A stretch of DNA of 64,000 nucleotides, taken from contig CAZJBQ010000002.1 in NCBI GenBank assembly GCA_964544625.1, positions 49,462 through 113,461 on the forward strand, written 5' to 3'. The position numbers and the translations under genes were made by a program. Source of the DNA: an uncultured Candidatus Peribacteria bacterium (lineage in GTDB: Bacteria > Patescibacteriota > Gracilibacteria > BD1-5 > JAGOOR01). The notes under the pieces are model-generated. The model saw nothing but the letters and a program-made list of their open reading frames with translations, searched no databases and had not been told where the DNA came from. Below are positions 6,640 to 47,966 of the stretch, piece by piece. The number at the start of each line of letters is the position of its first letter. The first letter of the stretch is position 1.

Positions 6640-6760
6640 AAAAATAAAAACCCTCTTGCGTACAAGAGGGCTGAAAAGAATATTGTGTACTTAAGAGCTA
6701 CCCCTTGGGAGAGAAGAGAAGTGGGGGAACCGGTGATGTGATTTGGAAAATATGATTCAT
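6640..6760 (-). promoter_or_regulatory. leader-peptide attenuator, unit proximal to proB (Pro-rich leader)
   Basis: Leader ORF 6760-6698 encodes MNHIFQITSPVPPLLFSPKG. Terminator CCCTCTTG/CAAGAGGG (6651-6670) plus a U-run. The leader 3' end CAAGGGG can pair with the terminator 5' arm. Confidence 0.6.
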
Positions 6761-6764
6761 AGCA

Positions 6765-6907
6765 ATAAAAAATCCCTCTACTGAAGAGGGATTTGAATTT
6801 AAAAATACAACAAATCTACCTCTTCATGAAGTTGAGATATGGCGGAGTTGAGAGATTTTTGTTGCAGAACATACTACAGAGTATAGCTTCGTTTCTGATT
6901 TTGTAAA
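6765..6907 (-). promoter_or_regulatory. promoter plus leader-peptide attenuator, distal unit of the proB tandem
   Basis: TTTACA-16-TATACT, then 7 nt, then ATG 6872. Leader ORF 6872-6816 encodes MFCNKNLSTPPYLNFMKR. Terminator ATCCCTCT/AGAGGGAT (6772-6792) plus a U-run. Confidence 0.5.
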
Positions 6908-6920
6908 ATAACAAATTTTT

Positions 6921-7502
6921 TTATCCGAATCTATGTTTCATCCAGAGAAGTATGGATAGCTGTAGATTACTTAGAGCTTTTCACTCGTAGAGTGATTGGG
7001 GAGTTTCCCACGACAATGTTCTAGGCATAGTATGAGAATCTGTATCCTCCTGAAAAATCCCTACTTCACCTGCGAGCAGTATGCGTCAGAGAAAGAGCAT
7101 GCCAGATTCTTTGTCCGTTTCGCATGGAATGAGCACTCAAAAATCCCCATGGCCACAACTATCAACAGGAGTAATATGCGGAAGTTTTTGAGTGAGAAGT
7201 TCATCAGGACGGAGACTTCATTTACCAACAGTTATTATGGATTTTCATGGTCTTCAAGAAGATTCTGTTACGAGCAATCTTCAGGCCCGATCAGCTACTA
7301 TGATACATCTCTGTGCCACTGTCTGTCAATCATATCTTTTCGGACGTACAAACTGCTGTTCTTTCATATGGATAACTGTTTCTGCATCGGGAAGTATGTT
7401 TAACCCAGGAACAGTTGTGACCTTACCAATTCAAAAGGCGTGAATGAGTTTTTCTGTATTAGGTTGGGCAACAATGGTTTTTGATATATTTGTGCTGGAC
7501 AT
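6921..7502 (-). CDS. hypothetical protein (193 aa)
   Basis: ATG 7502 to TAA 6921-6923 with nine in-frame TGA and no TAA/TAG. The plus-strand track ORFs here look like antisense artefacts. Confidence 0.5.
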
Positions 7503-7602
7503 AGTATAGATTTTTATAGTAGACAATTTTATTTTATGTCAAATATCTGTTTTTACGTTCCTGTGGATATAGTTTTCTGAAAAAAATCACTACAATCCAT
7601 CT

Positions 7603-8931
7603 ATGTCTCGTTTTTCCGATTACATCCAAAAAACATTTAGTTTCTCTTCCTCTGAAGCAGAGGAGATTATTGCTGCGATGATTACACCTATTGGCAAAAG
7701 TATCCGTGTGAATACTCAGAAAATCTCTCTTGAAAACTTCAAACTCCACGCAAAAGAACAAGGTTGGACACTGACCGATACTGATATTCCCGAAGTATTT
7801 CTCATAGATCGTGATGATACAACCGTAGCTCTCGGTCGTACCATCGAGCACTCTGCAGGTTGGTTTTATATCCAAGAAGTTGCCGCTGCCCATCCGCCTT
7901 ATTTGCTCAAAAAACATATCACAACTCAACCCGATAAGATCCTCGACATGTGTGCTTCGCCCGGTGGGAAGACGACACAGCTCGCTGATTATTTCCCAGA
8001 ATCACTCATCATAGCCAACGAAGTGAATCGGACTCGTACACCACAACTCTTCGATAATCTCGACCGTATGGGCTATGACAATGTCGCAGTTGTTTCCTGT
8101 GATGGCCGATTTTTCCAAAATTTTCCTGGTTTTTTTGATGCCGTTCTCCTCGACGCCCCCTGTAGTGGTGAGGGGACAGCATTTCGTGATAGCGCTATCG
8201 TCGACCACTGGCATGAGAAAAATATTGATCGTATTGCGAAACTTCAGAAACAGCTCATGGAAACAGCCGAAGCTGTGACGGCCTCAGGAGGTACCCTCTC
8301 GTATTCGACCTGTACACTCAATGTCATGGAAAACGAAGAAGTCCTCGATTCAAGGTTAAAAATTGAAGAACCACAACTCACAGAATTATTTCGAAAGCGT
8401 TTCTGGCCTCATATAGAGCATACTGGATGATTTTTTGCATCTATTTTTCAGAAAAAACCTTCAACTGATATTCACCATGACTATCCTGTACTCGCAGCAC
8501 AAGGTCAGAAAAATCTCATCGTCAAGCCTGCGACTAAAGGCGAGCGAGAAATTGTCGAACGATTTGTCTCAAAATATCTCAAGACAAAATTAAAAGATTG
8601 ATATCTCTATCTCTCAAAGGACGGCGTGTATTTCAATCAGAGAAATCTCGGACCATTGGCGGAGTATTATTACTTTGTCCATGGAGGCATGCGTCTCGGC
8701 TCTATCAGATGAAATACTTTTACTCCTACACATCATCTAATGTGGGCCATTACTGAAACGGAGCAAATTCCAGAAATAGAACTCACGACAGAGCAATGGA
8801 GCGATATTCAGAATAATAAAAAAGCTCATTTTGAGGAAGAAGATGGATATTATGTGGTGAAGTATTGACGATGAACCGTCGGGCTTCTCAGTGTCGAAAA
8901 TAACACCCTCATAACCAAGTCTTTGCGATAA
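7603..8931 (+). CDS. NOL1/NOP2/Sun family rRNA (cytosine-C5) methyltransferase (RsmB/RsmF-like)
   Basis: DMCASPGGKT and DAPCSGEG motifs. C-terminal extension read through four TGA. TAA at 8929-8931. Confidence 0.85.
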
Positions 8932-8935
8932 AAAA

Positions 8936-9169
8936 AGACCTCTTCCCGGCTCCCTCAGTCATAACAAGTGTCGATGACGATTGGCTAAGAAAAGGTCTCT
9001 GGGACAATACGAACCATACTCGTATATCAGTGTTGTGCCATCCCCTGCGGTGAGTTGAGGAGTATTCACCAGCTCCGTACCCTATGGCTCTATCAGTATA
9101 GTATGTGATAGAAGGATACTAACGTATCTATTTTGTGAGGACGTATGGCGTCACTTAGGACAGCTCAAC
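8936..9169 (-). ncRNA. candidate ~235-nt small RNA, class unknown
   Basis: Minus-strand TTGACA-17-TTTAAT (9204-9176). Multiple hairpins. Terminal stem GACCUUUU/AAGAGGUC followed by U6 (8931-8936). No ORF. Confidence 0.35.
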
Positions 9170-9254
9170 AATCATATTAAAACATATAATTATTAATCTG
9201 TCAAATTATTTCATACTCTTTTCTTTATATTGCTAAAAAATCCTTTTCTCTACA

Positions 9255-9695
9255 ATGAAAACTATGCAATGACTTTCATGACTTCTCTGGCTCCAGAAGC
9301 GCAACCGTGAGTTTAATGGATGGTTCGCGGAGTCGAATATAGACTACTATCTCGATGGAGCTCTCAGTGAAATAAATGAGATTAAAAAAAGTATTCAAGA
9401 CAAAAATCACGATGAACTCGAGCTCGAGGTCGGCGATCTCCTCTGGGACGTCCTCTCTCTCATCAACAAGCTCGACCACGAGAAACTGATTGACATGGAG
9501 AGAGTGTGCCCTCGTGCTGTCGGTAAATTCGCAGAGCGTATGCCATACAATGTCGAGTGATACTTCGAATGAGACCCGGTAAAACGTGAAGAACTCTGGA
9601 ATGCCGTCAAAAAACTCCAAAAGGCTCGCGGAATAGATGAACGTCATTGCCTGGTACAAAAAGTCTGGGAATCTGTCGAAAATAACAACATTTAA
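9255..9695 (+). CDS. MazG-type nucleoside triphosphate pyrophosphohydrolase
   Basis: ELELEVGDLLWDVLSL core and overall all-alpha MazG pattern. Four in-frame TGA. Confidence 0.7.
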
Positions 9696-9704
9696 TTATT
9701 TTTT

Positions 9705-10025: not shown

Positions 10026-10027
10026 AT

Positions 10028-10582: not shown

Positions 10583-10645
10583 TTGTATAAAGTCCGTAAC
10601 GGATTAAACTAATACAACAAATTAAACAGATTAAACCTTTCCCTT

Positions 10646-10813: not shown

Positions 10814-10834
10814 AAATTAAGTGTTTATCTCATC

Positions 10835-14945: not shown

Positions 14946-17900
14946 ATGCCCTTCTCTCTCCCCAAATGAAAACCCGAGTTCTCAAAACTCGAAGAATCTA
15001 TCCTCCAGTATTGGAAGGAAAATAAGACCTTTGAAAAATCAGTCGAATCCAGGCCGGCTGAAAATCCGTATCGATTCTATGATGGTCCTCCATTTATCAC
15101 GGGTACTCCGCATTATGGGAGCTTGCTATCTTCGATAATCAAGGATGTTGTTCCTCGCTATCAGACCATGCTCGGGAAGCGCGTCGAACGTGTCTGGGGA
15201 TGGGATTGTCATGGACTTCCAATTGAGCAAAAAGTACAGAAAAAATTATGACTTGAATCAAATAAAGAAATCGAAGAATCAGCAGGTGGAATCCAGGGAT
15301 TTATCGATGAATGTTACGCCTACACTCGCGATACTTCAGCAGAGTGGAGCTGGTATATCGATCATATCGGTCGATGGGTGGATATGGAGGGTGCGTACCG
15401 CACGATGGATCAGAACTATATGGAGTCGGTCATGTGGGTCTTCAAACAAATCTGGGAGAAAGGATATATCTACGAAGGGAAGCGTGTTTCGTGGTATTCT
15501 TGGAAGCTCTCGACCCCGATTTCAAACTTTGAAATCGCGATGGATGACAGCTATCAGGATGTCCAGGATCCAGCGATTACGGTGAAATTTCCACTCACAC
15601 AAGATACCTCAAAACAAGATGAGGTGCAGGGGTGAAAATTTGAATATACAGAGGATGGATATCTCCGATATGTCCTCGCAGTCATCCGAAATGCTGATGG
15701 TGAAGTTCTCATGCTCCAAAATAAAAAACACTGAAATACATGGCAATGTCCTGGTGGAAAAATTGACGCAGGAGAAACGGCAGAAACGGCTCTCAAAAGA
15801 GAAATAAAAGAAGAACTCTGAGTCGAGATAACCATCAGAAAGCATCTCTGAAATCGAAAAGTTTTCACTCAGCGTACTTTGTGGCAAGGGGAATATTTCG
15901 AAGTTGAGTTATTATCAAATCCAACTATTCAAGAACCAGAAAAACACGCCCAGATGCAGTGGATGAAAATCATAGACGATCCAGAACTCGTTCATGGTTA
16001 CTATCTCCAGTATGGTGAACATATTATTACCGAACAGCTTGGTCGGATGTATGATGCTCTCGCACTTCGAGCAATAGAGAAAAAATTACCTGAACTCAAA
16101 AGCATCTCATTGCTCGCATGGACAACAACCCCGTGGACTATACCGATGCATATGGCGATTGCGGTGCACAATGACCTCACGTATGTGTTAGTGCAAATTG
16201 AAGATGAAGCCTATTTGGTCGCGAAAAACCGTCTTGAGACCGTCATGAAAGGCAAAAATTTTACTGTTCTTACTGAATATCCTGGTTCATTCTTGGTTGG
16301 TAAATATTATCGTCCACCATTTGATTATTACGTCGGAAAAATCGATGAGAGAAATTTCCGTGTCTATCACGCTGACTTCGTCACTGACACTGATGGTACT
16401 GGTATCGCTCACGAAGCTCCAGAATTTGGTGATGTGGATTTTCAGCTTGCGAAGCAAGAGGGGATTTTCATCACGTCTGCAATCGATGAAGCAGGGAAGT
16501 ATACGGCACAAGTCCCAGACTATCAAGGCACGCTCTATATCGATGCTATCGACCCTATCACGGAACGACTCAAAGCAGAAGGAAAACTCTTCAAAAAAGA
16601 AGGTATCACTCACCGCGTCCCATACTGTCCTCGCAGCAATACGCCACTCATGCAGAAAGCCCAAAAGTCGTGGTTTATCGATATTCAGAGAATCAAATCT
16701 GAGCTCATCGCACAGAATGAAAATATCAACTGGTTTCCAGATCACTTTAAGCATGGACGATTTCTCAAATCTCTCGAATCTGCTCCAGATTGGTGCATCT
16801 CTCGCTCTCGTTTTTGGGGAACGCCGATGCCTGTATGGCAAAGTGCAGACGGTTCTGAGCGTGTCGTCATCGATTCTCGCGAAGAATTGTATCAGAGAAA
16901 TAAACCACTTGGTCAGATAACAAAGATTATTTTTGTGAGACATGCGGAGAGTGAAGCGAATGTAGCAAAAATGTATAATGATAATGGAACGTCTCCTCTG
17001 ACAAAGAAAGGACATGAGCAGGCAAAAAAACTCGCTCAAAGTCTTGAACAAGTTGATGTTGTACTTTGTTCACCATTTTTGAGAACAACGCAAACAGCAG
17101 AACCAATTGCACAAAAATTCGGACTTGATATTGAGGTTCGAGAATATCTCCATGAAACCAATCATGGCACACTAGCTGATCAAACACAGACAAAAACGGT
17201 ACTGGAAGAAAGAAAAAAATTCTTCGAAAATCATGACCATAAGTTTGGTGGAACAGGCGAATCATTCAATGATCTTATTGCTCGTGGAGAGGTTCTCCGA
17301 CAAGAAATTCTCGCAAAATATCCTGGGAAAACAGTCGTGGTCGTGAGCCACGGACATCCAGTCAAGGCATTTCTCGTCGCATGTGGAGCAAAAAGACCAA
17401 GTAATACTGAAAATGCAAAACCATACGTACTCTATCTCGATAACAACACAGGCAAGGAAATCAATCTCCACCGTCCATATATTGATCGGATTTATGTCCC
17501 ATGAAAATCTTCTTTCACTCCGAAAAAAGTGCTCGGTATTCATGGATGGACTTCTGCTGGCATCCAAAATCCGCAAGGAAAATGGTTGCCAATTCAAGAA
17601 AAGCTCAAAGCTGCATGAGTGCAATTTGATGTACCAGATTTTGATAAAAATAAGGAAACGAAATATTCACTTTGGAAAGAGAAGCTCGATACTCTGGATG
17701 TAGCAAGTTATGATACCATTATGGCAACGAGCTTTGGTTGTCCTGTTATCATGCAGTACCTCTGTGAGAGAAATATTAAATTAAAACGTCTTGTGTTGGT
17801 TGCTCCAAGTGGTCTCAAAGGGAATGAGTACCTCGAAAAAGTGATTCCAGAAATGACGGAAGATGTTGAGAAACTTCGATGACTCGTGGAAGAAATAATA

Positions 17901-19646
17901 GTCCCCCATAGTGAAGACGATGACTCGACCAGCGCACGATTTGAATACGGTCAATCACTCGCAAAAAGAATAGGTGCAATATTCCTCCCTATCAATGGTG
18001 TAGGTCATAAATTTGGAGGTTGGAGTATTGATTTTCTTTCTTCTCTTATCCAACACGGAGCCCCACTCCGTCGCGTCTCCGAAGTCCTTGATGTGTGGAT
18101 GGATAGTGCTTCGATGCCGTATGCACAAGTGCATTATCCATTTGAGAATCAAGCGAAAATGGAAGCGAGTTTCCCAGCCGATTTTATCGCAGAATACACA
18201 GGGCAGATTCGTGCATGGTTCTACGTGATGCACGCGATTGGCGTGATGGTAAAATGATCGCCAGCCTTCAAAAATGTCGCTGTCACATGAGTCATCAATG
18301 GAACTGATGGACGCAAGATGAGTAAATCCTACGGAAACTATCCTGATCCTCGTGAGACGATTCAGAAATACGGTGCTGACGCGATTCGCTTCTACCTCAT
18401 GGGCGGTACGCTGATGAAGGGTGAAGATATGGCATTTTCAGAAGCAGGTATTCAAGAATCAATCAAACGAGTCCTCCTTCCGCTCTGGAATTCCTACACT
18501 TTCTTTGCGACCTACGCAAATATCGATGAATGGGAATTCACGGATTATTCAACACCAAAGACACACGAACTCGATACATGGATTATTTCTCGTCTCCATA
18601 CATTGATTCAGGACACGAGAGTCTCAATGGATGCCTACGATCTCCAGAAAACGTGTGATGCTATCATGGTCTTCCTTGATGGTCTCAATAACTGGTATAT
18701 CCGGCGCAATCGCAGACGTTTCTGGAGAAGCGAACTCGATGCAGACAAAAAAAGTGCGTACGAAACACTCCATGAAGCCCTCGTCACAATGACGAAACTC
18801 CTCGCACCTATCTGTCCATTTATCACTGAGCATCTCTATCAGAATCTCATGAATACGACGGAATCACTGCATCTCACTGACGTCCCAGCAGAAAGCAGAG
18901 AGCACCTCCACCTCGCCGCGAAACAGAAAATGACACACCTCCAAAATCTCACCAATCTCGGTCTCGCTATTCGTGGTCGTGAGAAACTCCGCGTTCGACA
19001 GCCACTTCGAGCAGCGACGATTACCCTCGAACTCGATGAGAGCGCACGAGAGACACTCGCTGAAGAATTGAACGTCAAGGAAATACACAGTGTGAAAGAT
19101 GTCTCGGACTATGTCACCATTACCTATTCTCCTGATGCGAAAAAAATCGGAGCGACTGAGAGAAAACAATGGATGAAAACCATTATTGCTGATGCAAAAG
19201 CAGGGAAGGGGAACCTAACTTCAGAGGGGACTCTTGAACTCACGGTCCCAGAAGCACCAGACGGAAAAGTGGTTCTCGCTGCGGATGAATTTGAAGCGGT
19301 CTATACACCAAAAGAAGGTTCAACCATTGCTTTTGCTGGTAGCGCAGGATACGTCATCGGTCTCGATACAACCCTCGATGAAGCACTTACCTTTGAGGGC
19401 TATGCTCGTGATATGATTCGCGGTATTCAGGACGCTCGAAAAGAACTCGGATTCCAGGTCACTGATAGACTTCAACTCGCACTGACATCAGACAATGAAA
19501 TGCTTGGAAAAATTCTCGCCGTCCATCAAGGTATGATTGAAAAAGAAACTCTCACAACTGTCGAACTTCAGACTTCAAATCCCGAAAATACGAGAGAAGT
19601 CGAAATCGATGAAGGCTTTATGATTCATCTCAGTCTTACAAAATAA
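14946..19646 (+). CDS. ileS: isoleucyl-tRNA synthetase with three inserted enzyme domains (1566 aa)
   Basis: PHYGS (HIGH-type), WDCHGLP, WTTTPWT, LHRPYID and KMSKS motifs. All track fragments (15378, 15879, 17619, 17886, 18318) are in frame 0, joined by eleven TGA. Confidence 0.95.
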
Positions 19647-20991: not shown

Positions 20992-21143
20992 TTGAATTTT
21001 TCAGACTCAGAATATACTTTCTCCATGCGAAATATTCTCTCATCAGCAATGATACACCTGCTCACTCTCGTGACCAGGTAGTTTTTCGTTTCCGCTTAAT
21101 TCTACTCCCCGGGTCACACGACCTGGGGATTTTTTTGTTTTTT
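20992..21143 (+). promoter_or_regulatory. promoter plus leader-peptide attenuator (no single enriched residue)
   Basis: TTGAAT-15-TATACT, then 6 nt, then ATG 21025. Leader ORF 21025-21081 encodes MRNILSSAMIHLLTLVTR. Terminator CCCCGGGT/ACCTGGGG (21107-21128) plus a U-run ends 2 nt before ATG 21145. Confidence 0.5.
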
Positions 21144-21144: not shown

Positions 21145-21471
21145 ATGGCCCTCAATCTCCAAAATATCGAATCTCGTATTGCGTCGGAATATTGTTGCAG
21201 TACGGAAGAAATTCAGCGCGTTCTTCACGATGTTCGTGAAGCAGTTTCTGGTCATATTTTTCGTCATGAACTTCGCCCGAGAGATATTTTTCAGATGCGA
21301 ATTATGACGCATGATGAGCATATGCGGCCAGTGCCACCAAGTGAACAAACCTATCTGATTATTAATTTCGGTAAAGACCAATTAGACGATGACTACCTCA
21401 GCTATCTCCGGTCCTACTATGGCAAAATAATTTTCTTCCATATCTATCTCAATCACTCCCTTATTCTCTAA
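21145..21471 (+). CDS. hypothetical protein (108 aa)
   Basis: Intact ORF directly behind the attenuator. Confidence 0.5.
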   Translation: MALNLQNIESRIASEYCCSTEEIQRVLHDVREAVSGHIFRHELRPRDIFQMRIMTHDEHMRPVPPSEQTYLIINFGKDQLDDDYLSYLRSYYGKIIFFHIYLNHSLIL

Positions 21472-23837: not shown

Positions 23838-23978
23838 TTGATTTTCCATATAGACGCTTACAATATCTCTATGACATCTCGTCACAACATGATTATTATT
23901 ATCGCTTCGCATCACGCAGAGGGATAATATTTTCTTGTCATCATATTTTCTAACCTCTGCATCCGCAGAGGTTTTTTT
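23838..23978 (+). promoter_or_regulatory. isoleucine leader-peptide attenuator of ilvA
   Basis: TTGATT-15-TACAAT, then 6 nt, then ATG 23871. Leader encodes MTSRHNMIIIIASHHAEG (23871-23927). GCAGAGG at 23916-22 duplicates the terminator 3' arm (23965-71). The 5' arm CCTCTGC is at 23954-60. U7 at 23972-78. Confidence 0.7.
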
Positions 23979-23990: not shown

Positions 23991-25193
23991 ATGAAAACCA
24001 TCACACGTCCCGAGATAGAGAGGGCACAATCAGTTCTCCGAGAACATCGCATAGGAAATACTCCACTCACATCTCTTCAAAATCTCGTATCGTACCGACA
24101 AGGTACTGTACTTGGGAAGCGCGAAGATGAAAATGAGATAGGTTCGTACAAGATACGATGAGCGCTCTATGCTATCTCTCAACTCTCGCCTGAGCAGAAA
24201 AAAAGAGGAGTTGTCTGTGCATCGGCTGGCAATCATGCTCAGTGAGTTGCCTATGCTTGCAAACTCATGTGAATCCAATGAGTTATCTATATGCCCCGTA
24301 CGACGGACGCTACGAAAGTACGTCGAGTAAAGGAATTCGGTTGAGCCTCTGTTGAGGTTCGACTCGTATGAGATTATTTTGATCAGGCACAACAGGCCGC
24401 AAAGAAATATCAACGAGAAAAACGAGCCACTTTTGTCCATCCATTTGATGACCGTGACGTCATCATAGGGCAATCAACAGTGACGGCAGAAATACTTCAT
24501 GAAAATCCAAAAATACAAAATCTCATCTATCCTGTTGGTGGTGGTGGACTCATGACTGGAGGTATCATGGCACGTGATGCTCTCGGGAGTAGTGCTCTTA
24601 TTATCGGTGTAGAGCCAGCAGGAGCGCCGAGTATGACGCATGCCCTGGAACAATGAAAAAATTCTGCACTCAGTCACGTCAATAGATTTGTTGGATGAGC
24701 CGCTGTCGCTCAGGTCGGGAAAAATACATTTGATATTGTTCGAAAATCATGATCACAGATAGCCCTCGTTCCAGAGTGACGTGTGGCTCAGACAATGATT
24801 GATTTTCATCATGCTGGTGAAGTAGTCGAACCTGCGGGAGCACTCTGACTGGCAGGGGTTCATGTTCTTTCAGGCAAGCTTCGCGGGAGTGTCACCACTG
24901 TAGTATCTGGTCGATGCGTCTCTCCCAGTATGTGGACTGAAGTCCAGGGTTTAGCTGAGAAATTTAGTGGCAGAAAAATGATACTTGATATCATATTCCC
25001 CGAGAGAGAGGGCGCTCTTTCTTCTCTCCTCAAAGTACTTCCAAGGGGAATAAATATTGTTGCCTTTAATTATCAGAAACATTCTGGTCCATCGAGTCCA
25101 GCTCGGATAGAATTTGAGGGTGAGCCCGCCTCTCTTCATCGGGTACCATTTTTGATAAAAAAGGCTGGTTTTGCCTATTCTGAAGCGGAATAA
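23991..25193 (+). CDS. ilvA: threonine dehydratase (threonine ammonia-lyase) with C-terminal regulatory domain
   Basis: SYKIRG(TGA)A lysine motif, ASAGNHAQG(TGA)VA and GGGGL loop. 400 aa in one frame. Confidence 0.9.
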
Positions 25194-25433: not shown

Positions 25434-28268
25434 ATGACTCTGGACTCCATCCGCAAGCGCAATAATGAGCTTGTTCCCTTTGACCGCTCTCGCATCGAAA
25501 GTGCTATTGAGCAGGCTTGTATCGCTATTGGTTATAACGATATAGCCTTTATACCCCAGATTACGACAGAGATCATTCTCGCTCTCCAGACTCGATTCGG
25601 AGGAACAGAATATGTCCCGAGTGTGGAGGATATCCAGGATTCAGTAGAGCTTCATCTCATGCGCTCTGGTCGATTCGAAGTAGCAAAAGAATACATCACG
25701 TACCGTCAGAAGCGTATCGAAGAGAGAAATGAAATCGTCGAAGAAAAAATCGAAAAACAAGAACTCAAGGTCCAGAAACGTGATGGAAAAGTAGAAGCAT
25801 TTGACATGGGCAAAGTTCGTCGTGTTTTCGAACTCGCTGCCAACGGTCATCCAGCGATTGATCTCGATCTCCTCGTGAGCAACTTCCACACCAATATATT
25901 TGATGGTATCCACTCTCGAGATATCGCTCAAGCGACTATCATGACAGCGAAGAGTTATATCGAGCGTGATCCGCAGTACTCATACCTCGCTGCCAAGCTC
26001 TTCCTCATGAACTACTACAAGGACCTCATCGGTTCTGCAGATATGAAAAATTCTGGATTTACCAAGTGTTATCATGAAGCATTCAAATACAACCTCAAAT
26101 TCCTGGTAGAAACAGACCATCTCTCTGCTGATCTCATGTCATATGACCTCGATAAACTCGCAGAAGCAATTGATCCAACCCGAGACAATATCCTCACCTA
26201 CCTCTCAGTTCAGAATCTCTACGACCGATACTTTATCCACCATGAGAAAAACCGTCGTGAACTCCCACAAGCATTCTGGATGCGTGTCGCTATGGGTCTC
26301 GCAAAACGAGAAACAGATAAAGAAAAATGGGCAATCCAATTCTATCATCAGCTCTCACAACTCCACTTCGTGAGCTCAACTCCGACCCTCTTCAACTCAG
26401 GGACAAAGCGAAGTCAGCTCTCATCATGCTACCTCTCAACAGTTGATGATGATCTCCACTCAATTTTCAAAATCATTGCCGATGATGCTCAGCTCAGTAA
26501 ATGGGCAGGAGGTCTCGGAAACGACTGGACCAATATCCGTGCGACAGGTTCAAAAATCAAGGGAACAAATGGTGAATCTCAGGGTGTTATCCCATTCCTC
26601 AAGATCGCAAACGATACTGCTGTAGCAGTCAATCAGGGTGGTAAACGAAAAGGTGCGCTCTGTGCGTACATCGAGTGTTGGCATCTTGATTTCCCAGATT
26701 TCTCAGAACTCCGCAAAAATACTGGTGATGAGCGTCGTCGTACTCACGATATGAATACGGCTGCGTGGATCCCTGATCTTTTCATGAAACGTGTACAGGA
26801 AGACGGTAATTGGACACTCTTCTCTCCATCAGATGTTCCAGACCTTCACCACATCTACGGTTCTGCTTTCGAACGCAAATACGCTGAATACGAGAAAATG
26901 ACTCACAATGGTCAAATCACACACTTCAAGGTCATGAAAGCAAAAGACCTCTGGAGAAAAATCCTCTCTATGCTCTTCGAGACGGGTCACCCATGGATTA
27001 CATTCAAGGACCCATGCAATGTCCGCTCTCCTCAAGACCACGCAGGTGTCATCCACAACTCAAATCTCTGTACAGAAATCACACTCAATACTTCAGCAGA
27101 AGAGACAGCCGTGTGTAACCTCGGTTCAGTCAATCTCGCTCGTCATATGAAGGATGGAAAACTCGATCATACTATGCTCGCAGAAACAGTAAAAACTGGT
27201 ATGCGTATGCTCGATAATGTCGTCGATATCAATTTCTACCCAACAAAAGAAGCAGAAACTTCAAACATGCGTCACCGACCCGTCGGTCTCGGTATCATGG
27301 GTCTCGCAGATGCTCTCTACATGCTCGATATCGATTTCGACAGTGAAGAAGCTGTGAAATACAACGATGAAATGATGGAGGCTATCAGCTACTACGCTAT
27401 CCTCGGTAGCTCTGAGCTCGCAAAAGAACGTGGTGCCTATTCATCTTTCCCAGGTTCAAAATGGGATCGCGGAATTCTCCCTCTCGATACACTCTCTCTC
27501 CTCGACGCTGAGCGTGGTGAACGTGTCGATGTGAATCGTAACTGTACTCTCGACTGGACTCCAGTACGCGAATCTATCAAGCAGTACGGTATGAGAAACT
27601 CTAACTGTATGGCTATCGCTCCAACAGCAACTATCTCAAATATCGTTGGTGTCTACCCATGTATCGAACCGATCTACAAAAATCTCTACGTGAAATCAAA
27701 TCTCTCAGGAGAATTCACTGTCATCAATGACTACCTCGTCGCTGACCTCCAAAAGGCTGGCCTCTGGGACGCTCAGATGGTCGCAGAACTCAAGTTCCAC
27801 GATGGTTCTATCCAGAAGATTGACCGCATCCCAGCTCGTCTCCGCGCGAAGTACAAAGAAGTCTTTGAAATCTCACCAGAATGGGTGATCAAAGCTGCTG
27901 CTGTCCGTGGTAAATGGATCGACCAGTCTCAGTCAGTTAATATCTTCATAAAAGGTGCTTCAGGAAAAGTCCTCAACGATACCTATATGATGGCATGGAA
28001 GATGGGTCTTAAAACCACTTACTACCTCCGAACTCTCGGTGCTACGGCTATCGAAAAATCAACCTCTGCGTCTGCTGCTCTCGCTGGTTCTCACGTTTCA
28101 AGTGGTACAACAGCAACTGTCGAAGCGGTCGGTGTCACAGCTCCATCAGCACCAGCAGTTCCATCAGGAGAACTCGAGATGTCTGCAAAACCAAAAAAGG
28201 AATACACTGAAGCCGAAAAGGTCATGTGTTCTATCCTCAATGGGCCCAGCTGTGAAGCTTGTCAGTAA
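25434..28268 (+). CDS. nrdA: class I ribonucleotide reductase alpha subunit with N-terminal ATP-cone(s)
   Basis: Intact 944-aa ORF. ATP-cone N-terminus, NLCTEI active-site motif, C-terminal CEAC pair. Confidence 0.95.
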   Translation: MTLDSIRKRNNELVPFDRSRIESAIEQACIAIGYNDIAFIPQITTEIILALQTRFGGTEYVPSVEDIQDSVELHLMRSGRFEVAKEYITYRQKRIEERNEIVEEKIEKQELKVQKRDGKVEAFDMGKVRRVFELAANGHPAIDLDLLVSNFHTNIFDGIHSRDIAQATIMTAKSYIERDPQYSYLAAKLFLMNYYKDLIGSADMKNSGFTKCYHEAFKYNLKFLVETDHLSADLMSYDLDKLAEAIDPTRDNILTYLSVQNLYDRYFIHHEKNRRELPQAFWMRVAMGLAKRETDKEKWAIQFYHQLSQLHFVSSTPTLFNSGTKRSQLSSCYLSTVDDDLHSIFKIIADDAQLSKWAGGLGNDWTNIRATGSKIKGTNGESQGVIPFLKIANDTAVAVNQGGKRKGALCAYIECWHLDFPDFSELRKNTGDERRRTHDMNTAAWIPDLFMKRVQEDGNWTLFSPSDVPDLHHIYGSAFERKYAEYEKMTHNGQITHFKVMKAKDLWRKILSMLFETGHPWITFKDPCNVRSPQDHAGVIHNSNLCTEITLNTSAEETAVCNLGSVNLARHMKDGKLDHTMLAETVKTGMRMLDNVVDINFYPTKEAETSNMRHRPVGLGIMGLADALYMLDIDFDSEEAVKYNDEMMEAISYYAILGSSELAKERGAYSSFPGSKWDRGILPLDTLSLLDAERGERVDVNRNCTLDWTPVRESIKQYGMRNSNCMAIAPTATISNIVGVYPCIEPIYKNLYVKSNLSGEFTVINDYLVADLQKAGLWDAQMVAELKFHDGSIQKIDRIPARLRAKYKEVFEISPEWVIKAAAVRGKWIDQSQSVNIFIKGASGKVLNDTYMMAWKMGLKTTYYLRTLGATAIEKSTSASAALAGSHVSSGTTATVEAVGVTAPSAPAVPSGELEMSAKPKKEYTEAEKVMCSILNGPSCEACQ

Positions 28269-34368: not shown

Positions 34369-35373
34369 ATGGCTGCTGAAAAGAAGCTCATCTGTGCTGT
34401 CGGCACAGATCCAAATAAGATACTTCCCATGAAGTATAAGTGGGCACGTCAACACTACAAAAATGGTGTCGCAAACAACTGGACTCCCGAAGAAATCCCA
34501 ATGCAAAAGGATGTAGAACAGTGGAAGGCAAAAGATGTCCTCACCGACAATGAGCGTCATCTCATCATGTGGAATCTCGGATTCTTCTCGACAGCCGAGA
34601 GCCTCACAGCCAACAATATCGTCCTCGCGATGTATCGTCATGTCACTAATCCCGAGTGTCGTCAGTATATGCTCCGTCAGGCCTATGAAGAAGCAGTTCA
34701 TACAGATACTTTTGTATACTGCTGTGATTCATTGTCTCTCGATCCAGAAGAAGTTTTTGCAGCTTATGAGACCATCCCTTCTATCAAAGCAAAAGACGAT
34801 TTCGTCGTCAATCTCACGAAATCAATTCTTGATCCAACATTTGAGATTAATACTACAGCTGATAAGCAAGCGTTTCTCCTCGATGTCATAGGATTTAATA
34901 TGATCATGGAGGGTATATTTTTCTATGCTGGTTTTGCGATGATGCTCCAGCTCATGCGAAACAACAAAATGAAGGGTATCGGTGAGCAATTCCAGTATAT
35001 CCTCCGCGATGAATCTATCCACATCGCCTACGGTCGTGACCTCATCAATGGTATCGTCGCAGAAAATCCAGAAGTTTGGACAGAAGAGTTTAAGGCAAAA
35101 GTCATCGACCTCTTCAAACAAGCAACATCACATGAGCTCGCCTACGTCGAGGATTGTCTCCCATACGGCGTCCTCGGTCTCAATGGTGACGCAGTGAAAC
35201 AGTACGTCCGACATATCGTCGATCGACGTTGTGAGATGATCAATCTCCCGATTCTTCATGGTGATGAAAATCCATTTCCATGGATGAGCGAAATCATGGA
35301 TCTGCGCAAAGAGAAAAATTTCTTTGAAACAAAAGTCACAGAATATCAGACAGCCGGCAATCTCGAGTGGTAA
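34369..35373 (+). CDS. nrdB: class I ribonucleotide reductase beta subunit
   Basis: Intact 334-aa ORF with ferritin-like diiron motifs (EEAVH..., ...DESIH...). Confidence 0.95.
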   Translation: MAAEKKLICAVGTDPNKILPMKYKWARQHYKNGVANNWTPEEIPMQKDVEQWKAKDVLTDNERHLIMWNLGFFSTAESLTANNIVLAMYRHVTNPECRQYMLRQAYEEAVHTDTFVYCCDSLSLDPEEVFAAYETIPSIKAKDDFVVNLTKSILDPTFEINTTADKQAFLLDVIGFNMIMEGIFFYAGFAMMLQLMRNNKMKGIGEQFQYILRDESIHIAYGRDLINGIVAENPEVWTEEFKAKVIDLFKQATSHELAYVEDCLPYGVLGLNGDAVKQYVRHIVDRRCEMINLPILHGDENPFPWMSEIMDLRKEKNFFETKVTEYQTAGNLEW

Positions 35374-36250: not shown

Positions 36251-36814
36251 ATGTTTTGATTGTACACCATTCTTCTGGGGGTTTTTCTCGCTCTCCTCGA
36301 AATAGAGATAGAAGGAGAACATGGATGGGCTGCGAAGTTGCCAACATGGCGGCGAGTATTCCCGAGTTTACCTCTCTCGTTTTTGCGAAATATGACGGGG
36401 TATCATATCACACTTTTTGCTATGATACTCGTGCTCAATCATGTCGTATTTATCGGCATGGTTGATCAGTACTCACTCGGACACGAATTATTCATACTTG
36501 GTTTTCATTTTTTCCTGATTATTTATTGGGATTTCCTGTGGTTCGTACTCAATCCTCACTTCACGCTCAAAAAGTTTGAAAAACAATATATCCCATGGTA
36601 CCAACATGTAGAGTGGAAATTCGGAGGTCCCATGGATTATTGGTATGCTCTCTCACTCTCCGTTATATGTGTCATAATTGGTCACCTCTTTACGGGCGAT
36701 AGTCGCATTGTGGACCAATACATGGTGACATTTGTCGCGAGTATTGTCGTCATTTTTATTGCTATCATTGTGAGCCCTCGGTACGGTCGATGGTACTTTT
36801 TTATGCGAAAATAA
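36251..36814 (+). CDS. polytopic membrane protein, function unknown
   Basis: ATG 36251, one early TGA, multiple hydrophobic segments. Its stop overlaps the next ATG (TAATG). Confidence 0.55.
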
Positions 36815-37479
36815 TGACCTACCAAAAACACATCGCTAATATCGTGACGACTCTCGGAATCATCACTGGTATAGTAGCTTGTGTTGGAGCATTCTACCGT
36901 CCATCGTTTATACTTGCGGAGATATATCTGGTCATAGCCCTTATCCTCGACGCTCTGGATGGTTGGTGTGCGAGGCGTTTTGGCGGTCATTGGTTTGGTC
37001 CATACTTGGACGATATAGCTGATGCTATTAATTTTGGTCTTCATCCAGCAGTATGGGTCTATCTCCTCTCTGATTCGATACTTTTGGCGAGCATTTTCAC
37101 TCTCAGTATCATATTTCGCCTCGTACGATTCACTCTTCAAAAAGAAAATAAGAGCGTATTTTTTTCATGACTTCCATCGCCAGCCAGCGCTATCGCTCTC
37201 CTCGGATTATTATTTTTTACAGATTCGGTTTTAGTGGCTGCTCTCGGCGTCATAACACTCTCTGTACTATCGTGTTCGACTCTCCCGTGTCTCCATGTGA
37301 TCAAGTGAAATCATATCGCACCGCGTACGCTCTTCATAGGAGCAATAGTATTTTTTGTCATACTGTGGTGAGTATCGGGAGGACAGTTTTTTCTTATACA
37401 ATTTTGGTCCATCATGGCCTATGTCCTTTTGTCGGGACTCCTTTTTTATAATCCTCGTCTATGATTGCGAGACTCTTAG
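36814..37479 (+). CDS. CDP-alcohol phosphatidyltransferase (phosphatidylserine-synthase-like)
   Basis: D-x2-DG-x2-AR-x8-G-x3-D-x3-D motif: DALDGWCARRFGGHWFGPYLDDIAD. Confidence 0.8.
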
Positions 37480-38000
37480 AGGTATTTTTCATATTTTTGC
37501 CGGCTTTCGTTGGCAATGCACTCCCCGTGGTTGCGAAAAATATACCCGGTATTCGACGATTTTCTCGCCCTATAAGTCCGATATGGTTGGGTAAAAATAA
37601 GACTTATCGTGGTCTCATAGCTGGCGTTTTGGGCGGTATGCTCTGTGGTATTATTTTGACAGCATTGGTTCACAGCGGTTTCCTCCTGCAGTGGTCTCGA
37701 TTTGATTCTTTTTATCGTGATTTCTGAAATGGTATTTTCTTTGGTTTTCTCTTGAGTTTCGGAGCCCTGATTGGTGATATGATCAAGAGTTTTGCGAAGC
37801 GTCGTGTTGGTAAAAAGCCAGGCGCTATGTTTCAGCCATGGGACGGTATTGATTATATACTCGCGACTATCATAGTTATGCTTCCGTTTATTTTTCTTTC
37901 TTGGATGGAGATTATTTTCTTGCTCCTGATAGGTCCATTGCTGAGTCTCACGTGTAATATAATGGCCTATTCAATAGGGTGGAAAGACTGCTGGTACTAG
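37461..38000 (+). CDS. CarS-like (DUF46, CDP-archaeol synthase family) cytidylyltransferase
   Basis: LPAFVGNALPVV...LGKNKTYRG...GALIGDMIKSFAKRRVG...PWDGIDY matches the family pattern I know from archaeal CarS. Confidence 0.65.
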
Positions 38001-38866
38001 AGAGATTTTCCGATACTTTCACCTGTTATTATTTCTGTCTCGATTCCTTGTGTACTCATCGAGATGATATCGTCTGCGATGGAGATTTTATTTTCCTGGA
38101 AGAGGATGAGTACAGCTGAGCCTCCGAGTCCGAAATATCATTTTTCTTGTCATAGAGTGAATCGTTCTCAGACTCGCAGATGATTCGTTATAGATCCGAC
38201 ATTTGTTGCCCCTACTTCGAGCCAGAGGACATCACCAAAATTTTCTGTTCTGAGACGCATGAGATGACTCTTATTTTCTAACCAGAGACCGGTTCTGAGT
38301 ACACTATTATCGACCGAGTAGAGGAGGCCATCACGAGCCTGAGAGGAGAGCACTTCACCACTATCAAAAAAATGAAATCGATGATAATCGGAAAAACGGA
38401 GTCGAAAAAAGAGGAGATCTCCACCCGAAAAATCAGCGCTCTCAGGGCCAAAGAGTTTTTCTACATTGGTTGGAGTTCACTTCACCATACATGGTCATTT
38501 TTGTGAGAGAGCACGTGTGACTTCGAGACACCCATCCACAGGGCTGCAGATGATTTTTTTCTCAGGGGAAAACATGCGGTATTCTGGCTTACTTTTTCGA
38601 ATAAAAAAATCTTGCACACTGACAAAACCACCCGGAGGGACGATATATGTCGTAGTATCGATGTGGTATTTTCGTATCAATAGAGGGAGGAGTATTCGCG
38701 ACCAGCGAGTTCAAAAAATCCTCCCCATACCTGCAGAGAAGAGACGGGTGCGAATGAGAGAGAGGCACAATTTCCCGAGAGAAGAAAAATAGAGGAAATT
38801 GAGGAGTTTACTCTCAGCTCAGCTCTGGAGTTGTTTTGTGGTACGTGAGTAAAATTGTTGTTGCAT
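37997..38866 (-). CDS. psd: phosphatidylserine decarboxylase proenzyme
   Basis: FRLRFSDYHRFHF, EVGATNVGSI and G(TGA)YFGLGGSAV (cleavage-site region). Track fragments 38168 and 38495 share a frame. Confidence 0.85.
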
Positions 38867-38873: not shown

Positions 38874-39272
38874 TTATCAATTCTGAGCTTCAGTATATGC
38901 TTTCTTTGTTTTTGTATAGCTCTTCATGAGTTCCTGACAAAACTCTCTACAGAGAGGATCGAGTGGATCAATCTCGCAGAGGCGTAAAAATTGGAGATAG
39001 ACACAATAGACTCGAAAATGATTCAAAAGCTGTCTCTCGAGAGGCGTTAGTGTTCCTTTTTCGAGGAGAGATTGTCAGAAATCTATTTCTGTTTTTATTC
39101 CATACCTCATGAGAAGCGTAATATACTGTTGGAAATCCCGTTTCCCTAATCGAGCCGTTGGCATACCTGTTAAAAAACGGATACCACGCAGATAATCGGG
39201 TATACCAGGGTTTTCTCGATTACCACCAGTGACGACAACGAGGGTTGAGAGATATTGTTGGTCTATTTCCAT
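38874..39272 (-). CDS. hypothetical protein (132 aa), first gene of the psd operon
   Basis: ATG 39272, two TGA, TAA 38874. Confidence 0.5.
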
Positions 39273-39417
39273 AAAAAACTCCCCTTTTTGAGGGGAGAGA
39301 ATAAGTGATAAAAATTACACACATCTACCCCCCAAGTTTTTGGAGAATCTTCACGGCGAAAGAAGAAGATGAGAGATGCTGCATATTCTTAGTCTATCAA
39401 TTTATCAGAAATTACAA
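39273..39417 (-). promoter_or_regulatory. serine-run leader-peptide attenuator upstream of the psd operon
   Basis: TTGTAA-15-TAGACT, then 6 nt, then ATG 39384. Leader encodes MQHLSSSSFAVKILQKLGG (39384-39325). Terminator CTCCCCT/AGGGGAG (39279-39297) plus U6 abuts ATG 39272. Confidence 0.6.
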
Positions 39418-43780: not shown

Positions 43781-43783
43781 TTA

Positions 43784-44509: not shown

Positions 44510-44547
44510 GACAGTTGCATTATAGAGAAAATGACGAAAATAATAGT

Positions 44548-45003: not shown

Positions 45004-45004
45004 T

Positions 45005-45152
45005 TTGACAAAAATTTCATTCGTCTAAAATTATCTCTATGCGTCAAACCAGTTCACTTCTTCTCAGCCTTCTTCTTTCCCACCGGGAGAGTTAGTTTGC
45101 TGCGAAGAAAAACCACGCACTTTCCACTCTCCCCGAAACGGGAGAGTTTTTT
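45005..45152 (+). promoter_or_regulatory. leucine leader-peptide attenuator of leuA
   Basis: TTGACA-15-TAAAAT, then 7 nt, then ATG 45039. Leader encodes MRQTSSLLLSLLLSHRES (45039-45095). GGGAGAG at 45085-91 duplicates the terminator 3' arm (45140-46). The 5' arm CTCTCCC is at 45127-33. U6 follows. Confidence 0.7.
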
Positions 45153-45170
45153 ATTTCTTTAATTTCTTAT

Positions 45171-46952
45171 ATGAGCAATGTAATGCACGAATTGGATATC
45201 CACTATGAAGAATGGTGAGAAATAATGGCACAAGTGATATCTTGAGAAAAACCCCTCGGTTTTCTACCCAAAAAGGAAAGTACTACGACTGGTTACAAAA
45301 TTTATAAGCCAGAAAAAGTTATTATCAACGAAGTTGGACCACGTGAATCGGACCAAGCAGGCGGATGATTCCAGCCCTGGAACAAAAAAGATATGATAGG
45401 CTCAGCTATAAGAGCCGGTATTCCAGCTGTAGAGGTGGCATTTGCGGCAGGAGTAGACATGCAGACTATTGACTGGGCCGTATCTGAATTTGGCCGCGAA
45501 AATACACGTTTATCAGCTCTAACAGGATTCTTCCCACAAGCTATAAAAGAAGGAGCGGGGAAATTGAACAAAGCAAAGAATGGAGGAGTACATATTTTTT
45601 ATCCTACCCAAATACACCATATACAGGCTATGTTGGACAAAGACGGTAAGACACCAGTGAGAGATTTACAAGACCAGGTGCTCAAAATGATTGAGAATAA
45701 TGTCTGAATAGCACGCGATAATATCGGAAATGTCCAATTCTCACCGGAGATTGCTACTGATACTGATCCAGTTTTTCTCCTCGAATCTGTGAGAAAGGCT
45801 ATCGAGAGCGGAGCTACTATTATCAATATGCCAGATACACGAGGAGGAACGCCTACTTGGTATATGGAGAAATTATTTCATTTTATGAGTTGGGGTACAC
45901 AAGATTTACGAGAAAAACATGATTTTATATTTTCTTGTCATAATCATAATGATACAGGCATGGCTATTGCGAATAGTATTGCTGCTATTCGATGATGAGC
46001 TACACAAGTAGAGTCCACATTTTCTGGTGTTGGGGAATGAGCAGGCAATGCTCCAACAGAGCAGATAATAAATACTTTGAGACAGAATGGCTATGATATC
46101 GGAAAAATAGATAACAAGAAAGCATGAAGGATTGCTGAATATGTCAGAGCTGTTGTCTATGGTCAAGTGGTAGTCCCATATGGTCCCTGATCTGATGCAG
46201 ATGGTGCTGGAGTCCACAAGGATCGTTGGCATAAATATGTCGCATGGTGTCGAAAAAATAATCTTCATCCCAATCCTGATTTTTATAGAGCGGGCGCAAG
46301 TAGGCTCAATTTTGAAGCAGATAGTGATAATGTAGCGATAGGGAGGTTGGGCGGTGCAGGACAAGTTCTTCACGCTCTCAAGTCTCACGGTGTATTTCGC
46401 CCTACAAAAAAATGACCTACAGTAGGAAGGATACATACTACTTTTTGTGGTGACGATAAGGGAAAAATTGGCACCACACAAGAAACCAAAGTAGCCTATG
46501 ATTCAAACGTATTTGCTGAATATCTCCGTAATTCAAGGAGAATATCACAAGAAAATATATCTTTTGAGAATAATTCTGTCACTATTTCGGCTGTTATCAA
46601 TGGTAAAAATATAGTTATATCTGGGCCCATGAGTACCGAATCTGGTCCTATCCCGACAATTATTTGAGCTATTAATAGATTTTTAGGTAAAGAAATAATC
46701 AAACTTCACGTTGAGCCTATTTATAAACCAATATTCACACCCGATGTTGCTCAACAACAATTTCCAGATATTCATCAAAACGGAACTCATCACAGTGATG
46801 TCGAAGATGCTCCTCTCTGGTCTGAGGTTGTTGTCAGTGTTAACGGTATTAACAAAAAATCTCGAGTAAGATGACAAAATATTGATGAAACATTTATTCG
46901 TGCTATATTTGAAGCGTGCCTGGATGTGATATGTCAAAAAACAAAAGAATAG
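45171..46952 (+). CDS. leuA: 2-isopropylmalate synthase (LeuA/CimA family) with C-terminal regulatory domain
   Basis: MPDTRGG, CHNHNDTGMAIAN and GVGEG(TGA)AGNA motifs. Three track fragments in frame 0. Confidence 0.85.
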
Positions 46953-46987
46953 TTTTATTCTTCTAACCTCTTCCATATAATCCGAAT

Positions 46988-47662
46988 ATGTCCTACAGAG
47001 AAAACCCACAACTTCAGAAACTTGTCTCTATTTTTCTCGAGAAAAATACTCATATCAATCTCTCCGCTATTCGCGATGAAGAAGGCGTTTGGGTGAAGCA
47101 TATCGAAGACAGCTTAATTACTGCTGATTTACTTCGCGGCTATCTAGAATGACGGAATGGATGAAGGATGAAGGTACTTGATCTCGGAACAGGTGGGGGT
47201 TTTCCAGGCCTTCCGTTGGCGGTTATGTTTCCAGAAGTCCATTTTACTCTACTGGATGCTACTCGAAAAAAAATAGATTGCGTGCGAGAATTTGCCGAGA
47301 CACTCGGACTTACCAACGTCACTCCACAGTGGGGCAGGGTAGAAGATATGCGAGCGGCGAGTATGAAAGACGAGAGAAAACATAATAAGAACGGTATTAT
47401 GTTTCTCGATGGTACTCCGTCGACCAGCGATCACTATGATATCGTTGTCACGCGAGCAGCTGCGTACATCGAAGACCTCTTTACGTGGATAAAACCGCTC
47501 CTCAAAGCTGATGGTCGAGCGTGGATCTATAAACAAGCCTCAGAAGAGGAATGGGCTGACGGACAGCAACTTGCCAAAAATAGAGGCATGATACTCACAA
47601 AAGCTCTCACATATCATCTCGCAGAGCAAGAGCGATGGATACTTCAGATAATGAAAAAATAA
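46988..47662 (+). CDS. rsmG: 16S rRNA (guanine527-N7)-methyltransferase RsmG
   Basis: VLDLGTGGGFPGLPLAV motif. TATAAT lies 6 nt before the ATG. Confidence 0.85.
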
Positions 47663-47691
47663 AAAAGAATAATAAAAAACGGAGGATTTTT

Positions 47692-47966
47692 TTGACTCAA
47701 CTGAAGAAATCGCTATAGTTCTTTCATGCAAATAAATTTCACAACAAAGACGCCAAAACTTCTCACATCGAGAGGGTAGTTTTTGTTTAAAATTTAATTT
47801 TTCAAAACCCTCTCAACCTGAGAGGGTTTTATTTTTTACGAATTGTATGTCACATCACCTCTCTCTCATAACAAGCACCACCAAGAAACCGCCAAAGCGG
47901 GGAGGATAAATTATTGCCACTTTATTCTCCACTCCGCTTTGAAACATCTGAAGCGGATTTTATTTT
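47692..47966 (+). promoter_or_regulatory. tandem Thr/Lys-rich leader-peptide attenuators of lysC-asd
   Basis: TTGACT-16-TATAGT, then 6 nt, then ATG 47726. Leader 1 encodes MQINFTTKTPKLLTSRG (to 47779), with terminator 47808-47837. Leader 2 encodes MSHHLSLITSTTKKPPKRGG (47847-47909), with terminator 47933-47966. Confidence 0.65.

Follow-up and report, generated by a model that had tools for sequence, protein, structure and literature searches.

The window analysed here, a 64,000-nt stretch of contig CAZJBQ010000002.1, carries at six loci eight copies of a small element, ~110 nt long, that are very probably classical ribosome-mediated (leader-peptide) transcription attenuators in a compact form. 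They precede an ilvA-like gene, a leuA-like gene, a putative lysC followed by asd (two units in series, lys1 and lys2), proB (again two, pro1 and pro2), an operon that includes psd, and a gene with no family match (the unk unit). The evidence is computational throughout, and the reading as attenuators is convincing for the ilvA, leuA-like, lysC?-asd and proB loci, while the psd and unk units have the same anatomy and no established signal.

All eight units show the same architectural pattern (Table 1). Each begins with an open reading frame (ORF) that starts with ATG, has 17-20 sense codons and ends in TAA or TAG; a G+C-rich hairpin (-10 to -19 kcal/mol), followed at the sequence level by a T-run, starts 21-30 nt past the stop, and its end lies 6-23 nt before the structural gene or the next leader. 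Eight short ORFs lie between a promoter and the first structural gene, with promoter-like boxes before the six first units. The purine-rich final codons of the leader (segment 2) are complementary over 6-9 bp to the 5' arm of the terminator (segment 3), with predicted duplex energies of -10.2 to -17.2 kcal/mol in the window. Across the 19 units tabulated from the window and its relatives the 2:3 duplexes amount to -10.5 to -16.6 kcal/mol and are mutually exclusive with the 3:4 terminator, segment 4 being its 3' arm. An earlier note, made from the letters of the window and their translations, had described eight units of this geometry, and all of them are found where it placed them. The copy of the terminator arm that it saw at each leader end is likewise present in all eight, if slightly longer (6-9 bp) than the 5-7 nt it gave; its account of the attenuator design is supported as well, except that it overlooked an internal 1:2 hairpin predicted in four units.

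Table 1. Promoter elements, leader ORFs and terminators of the eight units (window coordinates).
Unit	Feature	Position	Strand	Remarks
ilvA	-10 box TACAAT, 6 nt before leader ATG	23859..23864	+	putative leaderless start
ilvA	leader ORF MTSRHNMIIIIASHHAEG + TAA	23871..23927	+	Ile codons 8-11; segment 2 = leader end GCAGAGG
ilvA	terminator AACCTCTGCatccGCAGAGGTT, then T-run	23952..23973	+	ilvA-like gene 23991-25193
leuA	promoter TTGACA, -10 TAAAAT ending 7 nt before ATG	45005..45031	+	
leuA	leader ORF MRQTSSLLLSLLLSHRES + TAG	45039..45095	+	1:2 hairpin 45075-45091; segment 2 = CGGGAGAGT
leuA	terminator ACTCTCCCcgaaacGGGAGAGT, then T-run	45126..45147	+	leuA-like (HMGL family) gene 45171-46952
lys locus	promoter TTGACT-16-TATAGT, -10 ending 6 nt before ATG	47692..47719	+	
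lys1	leader ORF MQINFTTKTPKLLTSRG + TAG	47726..47779	+	1:2 hairpin 47759-47775; segment 2 = GAGAGGGT
lys1	terminator, then T-run	47804..47830	+	
lys2	leader ORF MSHHLSLITSTTKKPPKRGG + TAA	47847..47909	+	tandem second unit, without own promoter; segment 2 = AAAGCGG, extended by GGAGGATAAA
lys2	terminator, then T-run	47933..47957	+	downstream: putative divergent aspartokinase 47981-49225, asd 49247-50257
pro locus	promoter TTTACA-16-TATACT, -10 ending 7 nt before ATG	6880..6907	-	
pro1	leader ORF MFCNKNLSTPPYLNFMKR + TAG	6816..6872	-	segment 2 = GAAGAGG
pro1	terminator, then T-run	6770..6794	-	
pro2	leader ORF MNHIFQITSPVPPLLFSPKG + TAG (tandem unit)	6698..6760	-	segment 2 = CAAGGGG
pro2	terminator, then T-run	6649..6672	-	proB 5870-6625 downstream
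psd	-10 box TAGACT, 6 nt before ATG	39391..39396	-	
psd	leader ORF MQHLSSSSFAVKILQKLGG + TAG	39325..39384	-	segment 2 = G run
psd	terminator, then T-run	39279..39297	-	132-aa ORF 38874-39272, then psd 37997-38866
unk	-10 box TATACT, 6 nt before ATG	21013..21018	+	
unk	leader ORF MRNILSSAMIHLLTLVTR + TAG	21025..21081	+	1:2 hairpin 21056-21079; segment 2 = GACCAGG
unk	terminator, then T-run	21106..21129	+	108-aa ORF 21145-21471, no family match

With a G+C content of 42%, the window shows broken-up ORFs under table 11, and reading TGA as sense yields ~4-fold more long-ORF content. TGA falls at positions where motifs require glycine, as in MKIGIV[TGA]ATGAVG of asd and KV[TGA]G of the next gene upstream of it, which confirms code 25 (TGA=Gly), although the leaders of the window themselves contain no TGA; as the relatives recovered are annotated as Candidatus Gracilibacteria, the proposal in the earlier note of a code-25 host resembling the candidate phyla radiation (CPR) is borne out. 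No tRNA genes were found in the window. The -10-like box that the earlier note had placed 6-7 nt before the leader ATG is a TAnnnT hexamer present in 6/6 first units, as against a background of 3.2% of window ATGs, giving P ~1e-9 for this placement. Ordinary genes are devoid of Shine-Dalgarno motifs and some begin 5-6 nt past a -10 box, and thus leaderless or Shine-Dalgarno-free initiation fits the organism. TGA is unevenly used among glycine codons: nrdA (25434-28268) has 0/54 (P ~1e-4), nrdB (34369-35373) 0/15 and a valyl-tRNA synthetase-like gene (53231-55894) 2/57, while the share is 21-29% in the attenuator-controlled ilvA, leuA-like, lysC?, asd and psd genes and 3/24 in proB; the expression level or a foreign origin of the nrd genes could be the cause.

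Based on these features, we infer that transcription begins at or beside the A of the leader AUG, since the -10 box ends 6-7 nt upstream of it, and that the leader would be read from a leaderless mRNA. The polymerase would then cross an A/U-rich spacer of ~25 nt and enter segment 3. If a ribosome were held at the enriched codons (~5-14), segment 2, i.e. the purine-rich last codons together with the stop, would lie outside its footprint and capture segment 3 as it emerges; the terminator would not form and the polymerase would enter the gene 6-23 nt past the hairpin. A ribosome that had reached the last 4-7 codons or the stop would instead cover segment 2, leaving segments 3 and 4 to pair and transcription to end at the U-run. 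By prediction, ilvA would respond to Ile-tRNA, as would a cimA-like paralogue in a relative; the leuA-like gene would respond to Leu-tRNA, the putative aspartokinase-asd operon to Thr- and Lys-tRNA, and proB (in relatives, proB-proS) to Pro-tRNA. Units in series, as at the lys and pro loci and, in a relative, for Leu, are expected to make the response sharper. A gene for NusA is present in the window.

This scheme was modelled with nascent RNA cut before the 3' arm, blocking a ribosome footprint from -15 to +11 of the A-site codon by codon; folding of the full-length RNA at equilibrium was rejected, as it does not represent the relevant state, and was replaced by the nascent-RNA folding. In 21/21 units (the eight of the window and those of relatives) the antiterminator forms in the model with the A-site in the first ~12-14 codons, and in none does it form once the A-site has reached the last 4-7 codons or the stop. 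Directly next to this switch boundary lie the enriched residues (IIIIA|shhaeg, LLLSLLL|shres, TTKTPKLL|tsrg, STPPYL|nfmkr, VPPPL|stler), and the position just upstream of it is, in the model, where a stall would best favour read-through. When the ribosome is left out, the internal 1:2 hairpin is predicted to sequester the leader end in the ilvA, leuA, lys1 and unk units, and untranslated RNA is thus predicted to terminate in this four-segment design; in the same four units segment 1 overlaps or adjoins the regulatory codons. For lys2, pro1, pro2 and psd no 1:2 hairpin is predicted, and in this three-segment design untranslated RNA is predicted to read through.

Relatives from a large protein collection show that several of the units are kept at orthologous loci. 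Each leuA-like orthologue (84, 83, 54 and 34% identity) follows a Leu-rich ORF, whose ATG has a -10 box 6-7 nt ahead of it, and a terminator with a 5' arm that is complementary to the leader end: the leader is MRPSQSLLLNLLLSHRES in the 84% relative, MKAISNSLLVLILLPSQGGVGL and MKSYFLLALLLLISGGLGA, in tandem, in the 54% relative, and MNSRTNIAFLLLLALQAPGAVA in the 34% relative. Across these relatives the segment 2/3 pairs themselves differ (CGGGAGAGT/ACTCTCCC; GGGAGG/CCTCCC; GCCAGGAG/CTCCTGGC). In the 54% clade, which has two Leu units in series, both leaders have a TGA in frame, two or three codons short of the true stop, and they therefore reach the right distance from the terminator only with TGA as sense; here a 708-aa 'leuA' gene call runs over the second leader and its terminator (L088 9536-9950; also L089-L093 and L095). 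The 84% relative retains both lys leaders with identical peptides, 8/8 nucleotide differences being synonymous and at third positions. Among ~30 proB homologues of the Gracilibacteria type, leaders with a PP, PVP or PPP core precede proB in 5/5 relatives (70, 60, 48, 46 and 41% identity), with a tandem pair as in the window in the 70% relative and proB-proS operons in the three most distant ones. In relatives, the -10 box is preceded at 15-16 nt by a TTGACA-like box. The 34% relative further encodes, directly after the Leu-controlled HMGL gene, a second HMGL paralogue preceded by an Ile-rich leader, MSHTQANIIESIIIASLRRG (L094 2583-2710). This paralogue is possibly a citramalate synthase, another entry point to isoleucine synthesis, which suggests a citramalate-type isoleucine route under Ile control. 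Taken together, ORF length, ATG start and the position of the stop relative to the terminator are all conserved, and the Leu-, Pro-, Thr/Lys- and Ile-rich stretches are kept while neighbouring residues drift. Thus, on the comparison of orthologous loci that the earlier note had proposed, leaders and arm pairing are retained before the leuA-like gene (84-34%), proB (70-41%) and the lys genes, and the psd unit is absent from its 72% relative.

Other searches were less productive: genome contigs searched with asd gave distant phyla only (best 51%, Meiothermus), and metagenome contigs searched with ilvA gave two loci of ~38% and no close relatives. The search for ilvA relatives used a concatenated ilvA, unk and lysC protein query, which was swamped by the universal ilvA family and missed a known 85% lysC relative present in the collection; the best 'ilvA' match (P0013, 48%) belongs to an ordinary standard-code ilvBNC-ilvA operon and is irrelevant here.

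Two further lines of evidence come from the way the units have changed. Leader ends pair far better with their own 5' arm than with those of other units, the mean duplex being -14.3 versus -8.6 kcal/mol over 11 non-redundant units, and the cognate mean was reached in 0/20,000 permutations; this permutation test was used to assess the covariation proposed in the earlier note, a hand-made 2:3:4 alignment having been dropped as structure-biased. Differing leader codons between the window and its relatives are synonymous in 15 cases and non-synonymous in nine, as opposed to 3 versus 22 and 2 versus 23 in the other frames and a chance expectation of ~23% for the synonymous share; third positions account for 19/29 changed bases, and the Pro, Thr and Lys codons of the leaders change synonymously. 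This synonymous bias and the cognate pairing indicate that the leaders evolve as coding sequence and their ends together with the terminators, and the leaders, judged from their sequence, may be translated. The central claim of the earlier note, namely that the leader end competes for the 5' arm and would be masked by a ribosome there, is thus supported by conservation, covariation, coding signature and the nascent-RNA model alike. Orthologous units resemble one another with z = 8-20, and the non-orthologous lys1, pro1 and unk units reach z ~8-11, which is compatible with an origin by duplication of a cassette; as the common layout inflates scores against the mononucleotide-shuffle null, this similarity is not proof of duplication.

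The identities of the downstream genes are in part clear. The ilvA-like product is a pyridoxal phosphate-dependent enzyme whose top NCBIfam matches are threonine ammonia-lyases, asd, proB and psd are readily identified, and proB encodes a glutamate 5-kinase of 251 aa without a PUA domain. Of the names given in the earlier note, ilvA, asd and proB stand; psd is only the second gene of its operon, after a 132-aa ORF of unknown identity; 'leuA' is a divergent HMGL-family enzyme with isopropylmalate synthases as top matches, below the curated family cut-offs; and 'lysC' as an aspartokinase is weak, with an NCBIfam match of 3.5e-7 only, together with KVGG and TADPRIV motifs, the latter presumably linked to aspartokinases. 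The match between enriched residue and pathway that the earlier note claimed is borne out for ilvA (IIII), the leuA-like gene (LLLSLLL), lysC?-asd (Thr/Lys) and proB (PP, PVPP), is doubtful for psd and fails for unk. Five of the six Leu codons in the leuA leader are the minor codon CTT (15% of Leu codons), and the Pro leaders use the rarer codons CCG and CCC. The psd gene converges on pssA-like and CarS-like (CDP-archaeol synthase family) genes on the plus strand (36790-38000), an arrangement retained in the 72% relative (L101 2192-4243); neither the attenuator nor the gene preceding psd is retained there.

Several observations weigh against attenuation as interpreted here. Equilibrium folding of the full-length RNA always favours the terminator, and the model therefore depends on co-transcriptional kinetics. 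The covariation sample is a handful of lineages, and counts alone give the leaders only a modest enrichment of residues (P = 0.0025-0.17 for each), with no clearly enriched residue in the unk leader. As no close relative with ilvA was found, conservation of the ilvA unit rests on the one distant Ile unit before a different gene. The psd attenuator is absent from the orthologous locus of the single close psd relative (72%), where a different 451-aa gene, starting 7 nt past a -10 box, precedes psd; moreover, its leader has a Ser run 6 codons from the switch boundary, and it is not obvious why Psd should be induced when Ser is limiting. For 'lysC' there was no Pfam match at E<=10 and no PDB sequence match, BLAST against a ThrA-like aspartokinase failed to confirm the identity, and the AlphaFold model (from a shallow alignment) has a predicted local distance difference test score (pLDDT) of 36 and is unusable.

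Some of these points would also follow if the units were generic sensors of translation status, in which any slowdown or failure of leader translation alters read-through and the residue runs are secondary. The absence of an enriched residue from the unk leader, the distance of the psd Ser run from the boundary, the absence of the psd unit from the 72% relative and the predicted default read-through of four units when untranslated all agree with such a sensor, and this account may hold chiefly for the psd and unk units. As a general account it is unlikely, given that the Leu, Pro, Ile and Thr/Lys runs persist in relatives amid drifting neighbours, that their codons change synonymously, and that they sit at the switch boundary and match the downstream pathway.

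Considerably less probable still is a switch operated by RNA or protein, be it a riboswitch, a T-box-like element or antitermination by an RNA-binding protein, with the ORFs as incidental features. The alternative 2:3 and 3:4 pairings indeed need no translation, and the leader-end RNA is conserved between the window ilvA unit and the L094 Ile unit (nearly identical over segments 2-4) in different reading frames. However, Rfam returned zero matches across the whole window at gathering thresholds and at E<=1 alike, including the T-box and lysine riboswitch covariance models and the amino-acid leader families (Leu_leader, Thr_leader, His_leader, Trp_leader and others), and ~110 nt is too small for a ligand- or tRNA-binding domain. 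The synonymous bias in the leader frame is also absent from the other two frames, and the conserved ORF length, ATG and stop-terminator spacing go with a -10 box placed for a leaderless AUG.

The ribosome-mediated reading can further be set against coincidence. Scanning the window for terminators gave 29 strong terminator-like hairpins, of which only those of the eight units have an upstream short ATG ORF and a duplex of <= -10 kcal/mol; others with an incidental upstream ORF give duplexes of -0.5 to -6.2 kcal/mol, and none of the remaining ones yielded an additional unit even with GTG and TTG starts allowed. Against random 21-mers, the control for arm duplication that the earlier note had called for, P per unit ranges from <0.0003 to 0.025. 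The observed energies were reached by 0/70 gene-end segments (each the stop codon with the 15 nt preceding and the 3 nt following it, from a greedy ORF set that includes some antisense ORFs), with the exception of unk (1/70). Of 59 terminators in unrelated bacterial loci totalling 1.42 Mb, the scanner matched 2 (0/29 in the low-GC subset); in ~74 kb of flanks from relatives it gave orthologous units only. These controls confirm the observation and place it well outside what chance would give. The notion that ordinary terminators of upstream genes lie by accident next to small ORFs and similar arms, for which one might cite the wealth of terminator-like hairpins and short ORFs in AT-rich intergenic DNA, is therefore effectively refuted and has next to no probability, with a promoter upstream of each first unit, a terminator between promoter and gene, very low control probabilities and conservation at orthologous loci.

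Comparable elements are well known. The classical enterobacterial attenuators (trp, leu, ilvGMEDA, thr, his, pheA) likewise have a short ORF with cognate codons in which ribosome position is the signal, exclusive 1:2, 2:3 and 3:4 pairings, and an intrinsic terminator before the first structural gene. Four window units are predicted to follow this full four-segment logic, while the other half are without segment 1. The leu leader of Salmonella and E. coli favours a minor Leu codon, as does the Leu leader of the window. In contrast to the enterobacterial cases, the window units are leaderless rather than Shine-Dalgarno-led, shorter (~110 nt), in tandem at two loci and in a code-25 Gracilibacteria host. 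In Firmicutes, ilv-leu, proBA and lysC are under the control of T-box and lysine (L-box) riboswitches, which bind tRNA or lysine directly through ~200 nt of conserved structure. They regulate the same gene classes as the units here and likewise act through an intrinsic terminator that is conditional and lies in the 5' region; unlike them, the window units bear a coding signature and measure only ~110 nt.

The closest architecture is that of Actinobacteria, where leaderless leader peptides control amino-acid genes, e.g. Corynebacterium ilvBNC and trp, and the mycobacterial poly-Cys ORFs (PMC11857589, PMC1262725, bioRxiv 10.1101/834739): a leaderless leader peptide, then a terminator, before amino-acid genes. 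The phylum and the sequences are unrelated, the amino acids of the window differ (Pro for proB/proS; Thr/Lys for the asd operon), its tandem units are homotypic, and a strong terminator is present in every unit, unlike several actinobacterial cases that have no obvious one (PMC1262725). A further parallel is the mgtCBR leader of Salmonella, in which the 17-codon mgtP with consecutive Pro codons senses proline-charged tRNA via alternative stem-loops, and two short ORFs in series form 'tandem attenuators' (PMC3641672). However, mgtP has a Shine-Dalgarno sequence, controls Mg2+ transport and virulence genes and is paired with mgtM, which senses a different signal, ATP; the tandems of the window are complete leader and terminator copies with similarly enriched leaders (Pro; Thr/Lys) before a cognate biosynthetic gene.

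With regard to novelty, the earlier note had named leader-peptide attenuation as classical in Proteobacteria and knew of no description of it as a reused module in code-25 or CPR-like bacteria. A literature search of incomplete coverage, and hence weak evidence, found no paper that ties Gracilibacteria or Patescibacteria to leader-peptide attenuation and none on a Thr/Lys leader before lysC; within the same coverage no description was found of Pro-sensing control of proB-proS or Thr/Lys-sensing of the asd operon. The mechanism itself has been reported beyond Proteobacteria, in Actinobacteria and Firmicutes (PMC1262725, PMC2965389, PMC5794164), and the novelty is therefore narrower than implied.

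Elsewhere in the window, a gene at 14946-19646 (+) encodes a class I aminoacyl-tRNA synthetase of 1566 aa in which inserted NUDIX, histidine-phosphatase and serine-hydrolase-like domains separate the catalytic part from the anticodon-binding part; the annotation of the relative L098 shows the same composition, and L096, whose copy of the gene is truncated by the locus end, shows part of it. Two neighbouring genes (57331-57906 and 58039-58572, both -) have a common N-terminus, KGFTLVELMVVMAIIAILATA, which we take to be typical of type IV pilin-like proteins, and a strong terminator (57308-57289) comes after one of them. The right end (60800-64000) has few long ORFs even with TGA as sense, including gaps of 851 and 669 nt, with ordinary G+C (0.37-0.43) and no Rfam match.

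The CPR/Patescibacteria, Gracilibacteria among them, are uncultured bacteria of small genome size, and the usual picture is one of limited biosynthesis and regulation. If the attenuators are what they appear to be, this lineage at least would regulate amino-acid genes via its own translation machinery, with eight conserved attenuators in 64 kb. More tentatively, and with the balance of probability somewhat against it, the compact leaderless cassette might be a general-purpose module of Gracilibacteria: duplicated in tandem, reused at different entry enzymes for one amino acid (ilvA, and a cimA-like gene in a relative), recruited outside amino-acid synthesis (psd, the unknown gene), placing proB-proS under Pro and the asd operon under Thr/Lys control, and constituting the first defined cis-regulatory system of the CPR/Patescibacteria. 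In practical terms, gene callers merge or miss such leaders, and a scanner for the blueprint could improve the annotation of code-25 genomes; the leaders also offer a sequence-only read-out of the amino acids that are monitored, namely Ile, Leu, Thr/Lys and Pro. The attenuation reading, if true, would bring a further deep bacterial lineage into the range of leader-peptide attenuation, add Pro (proB/proS) and Thr/Lys (asd operon) to its specificities, and provide a further example of complete, similarly enriched leader and terminator units arranged in series.

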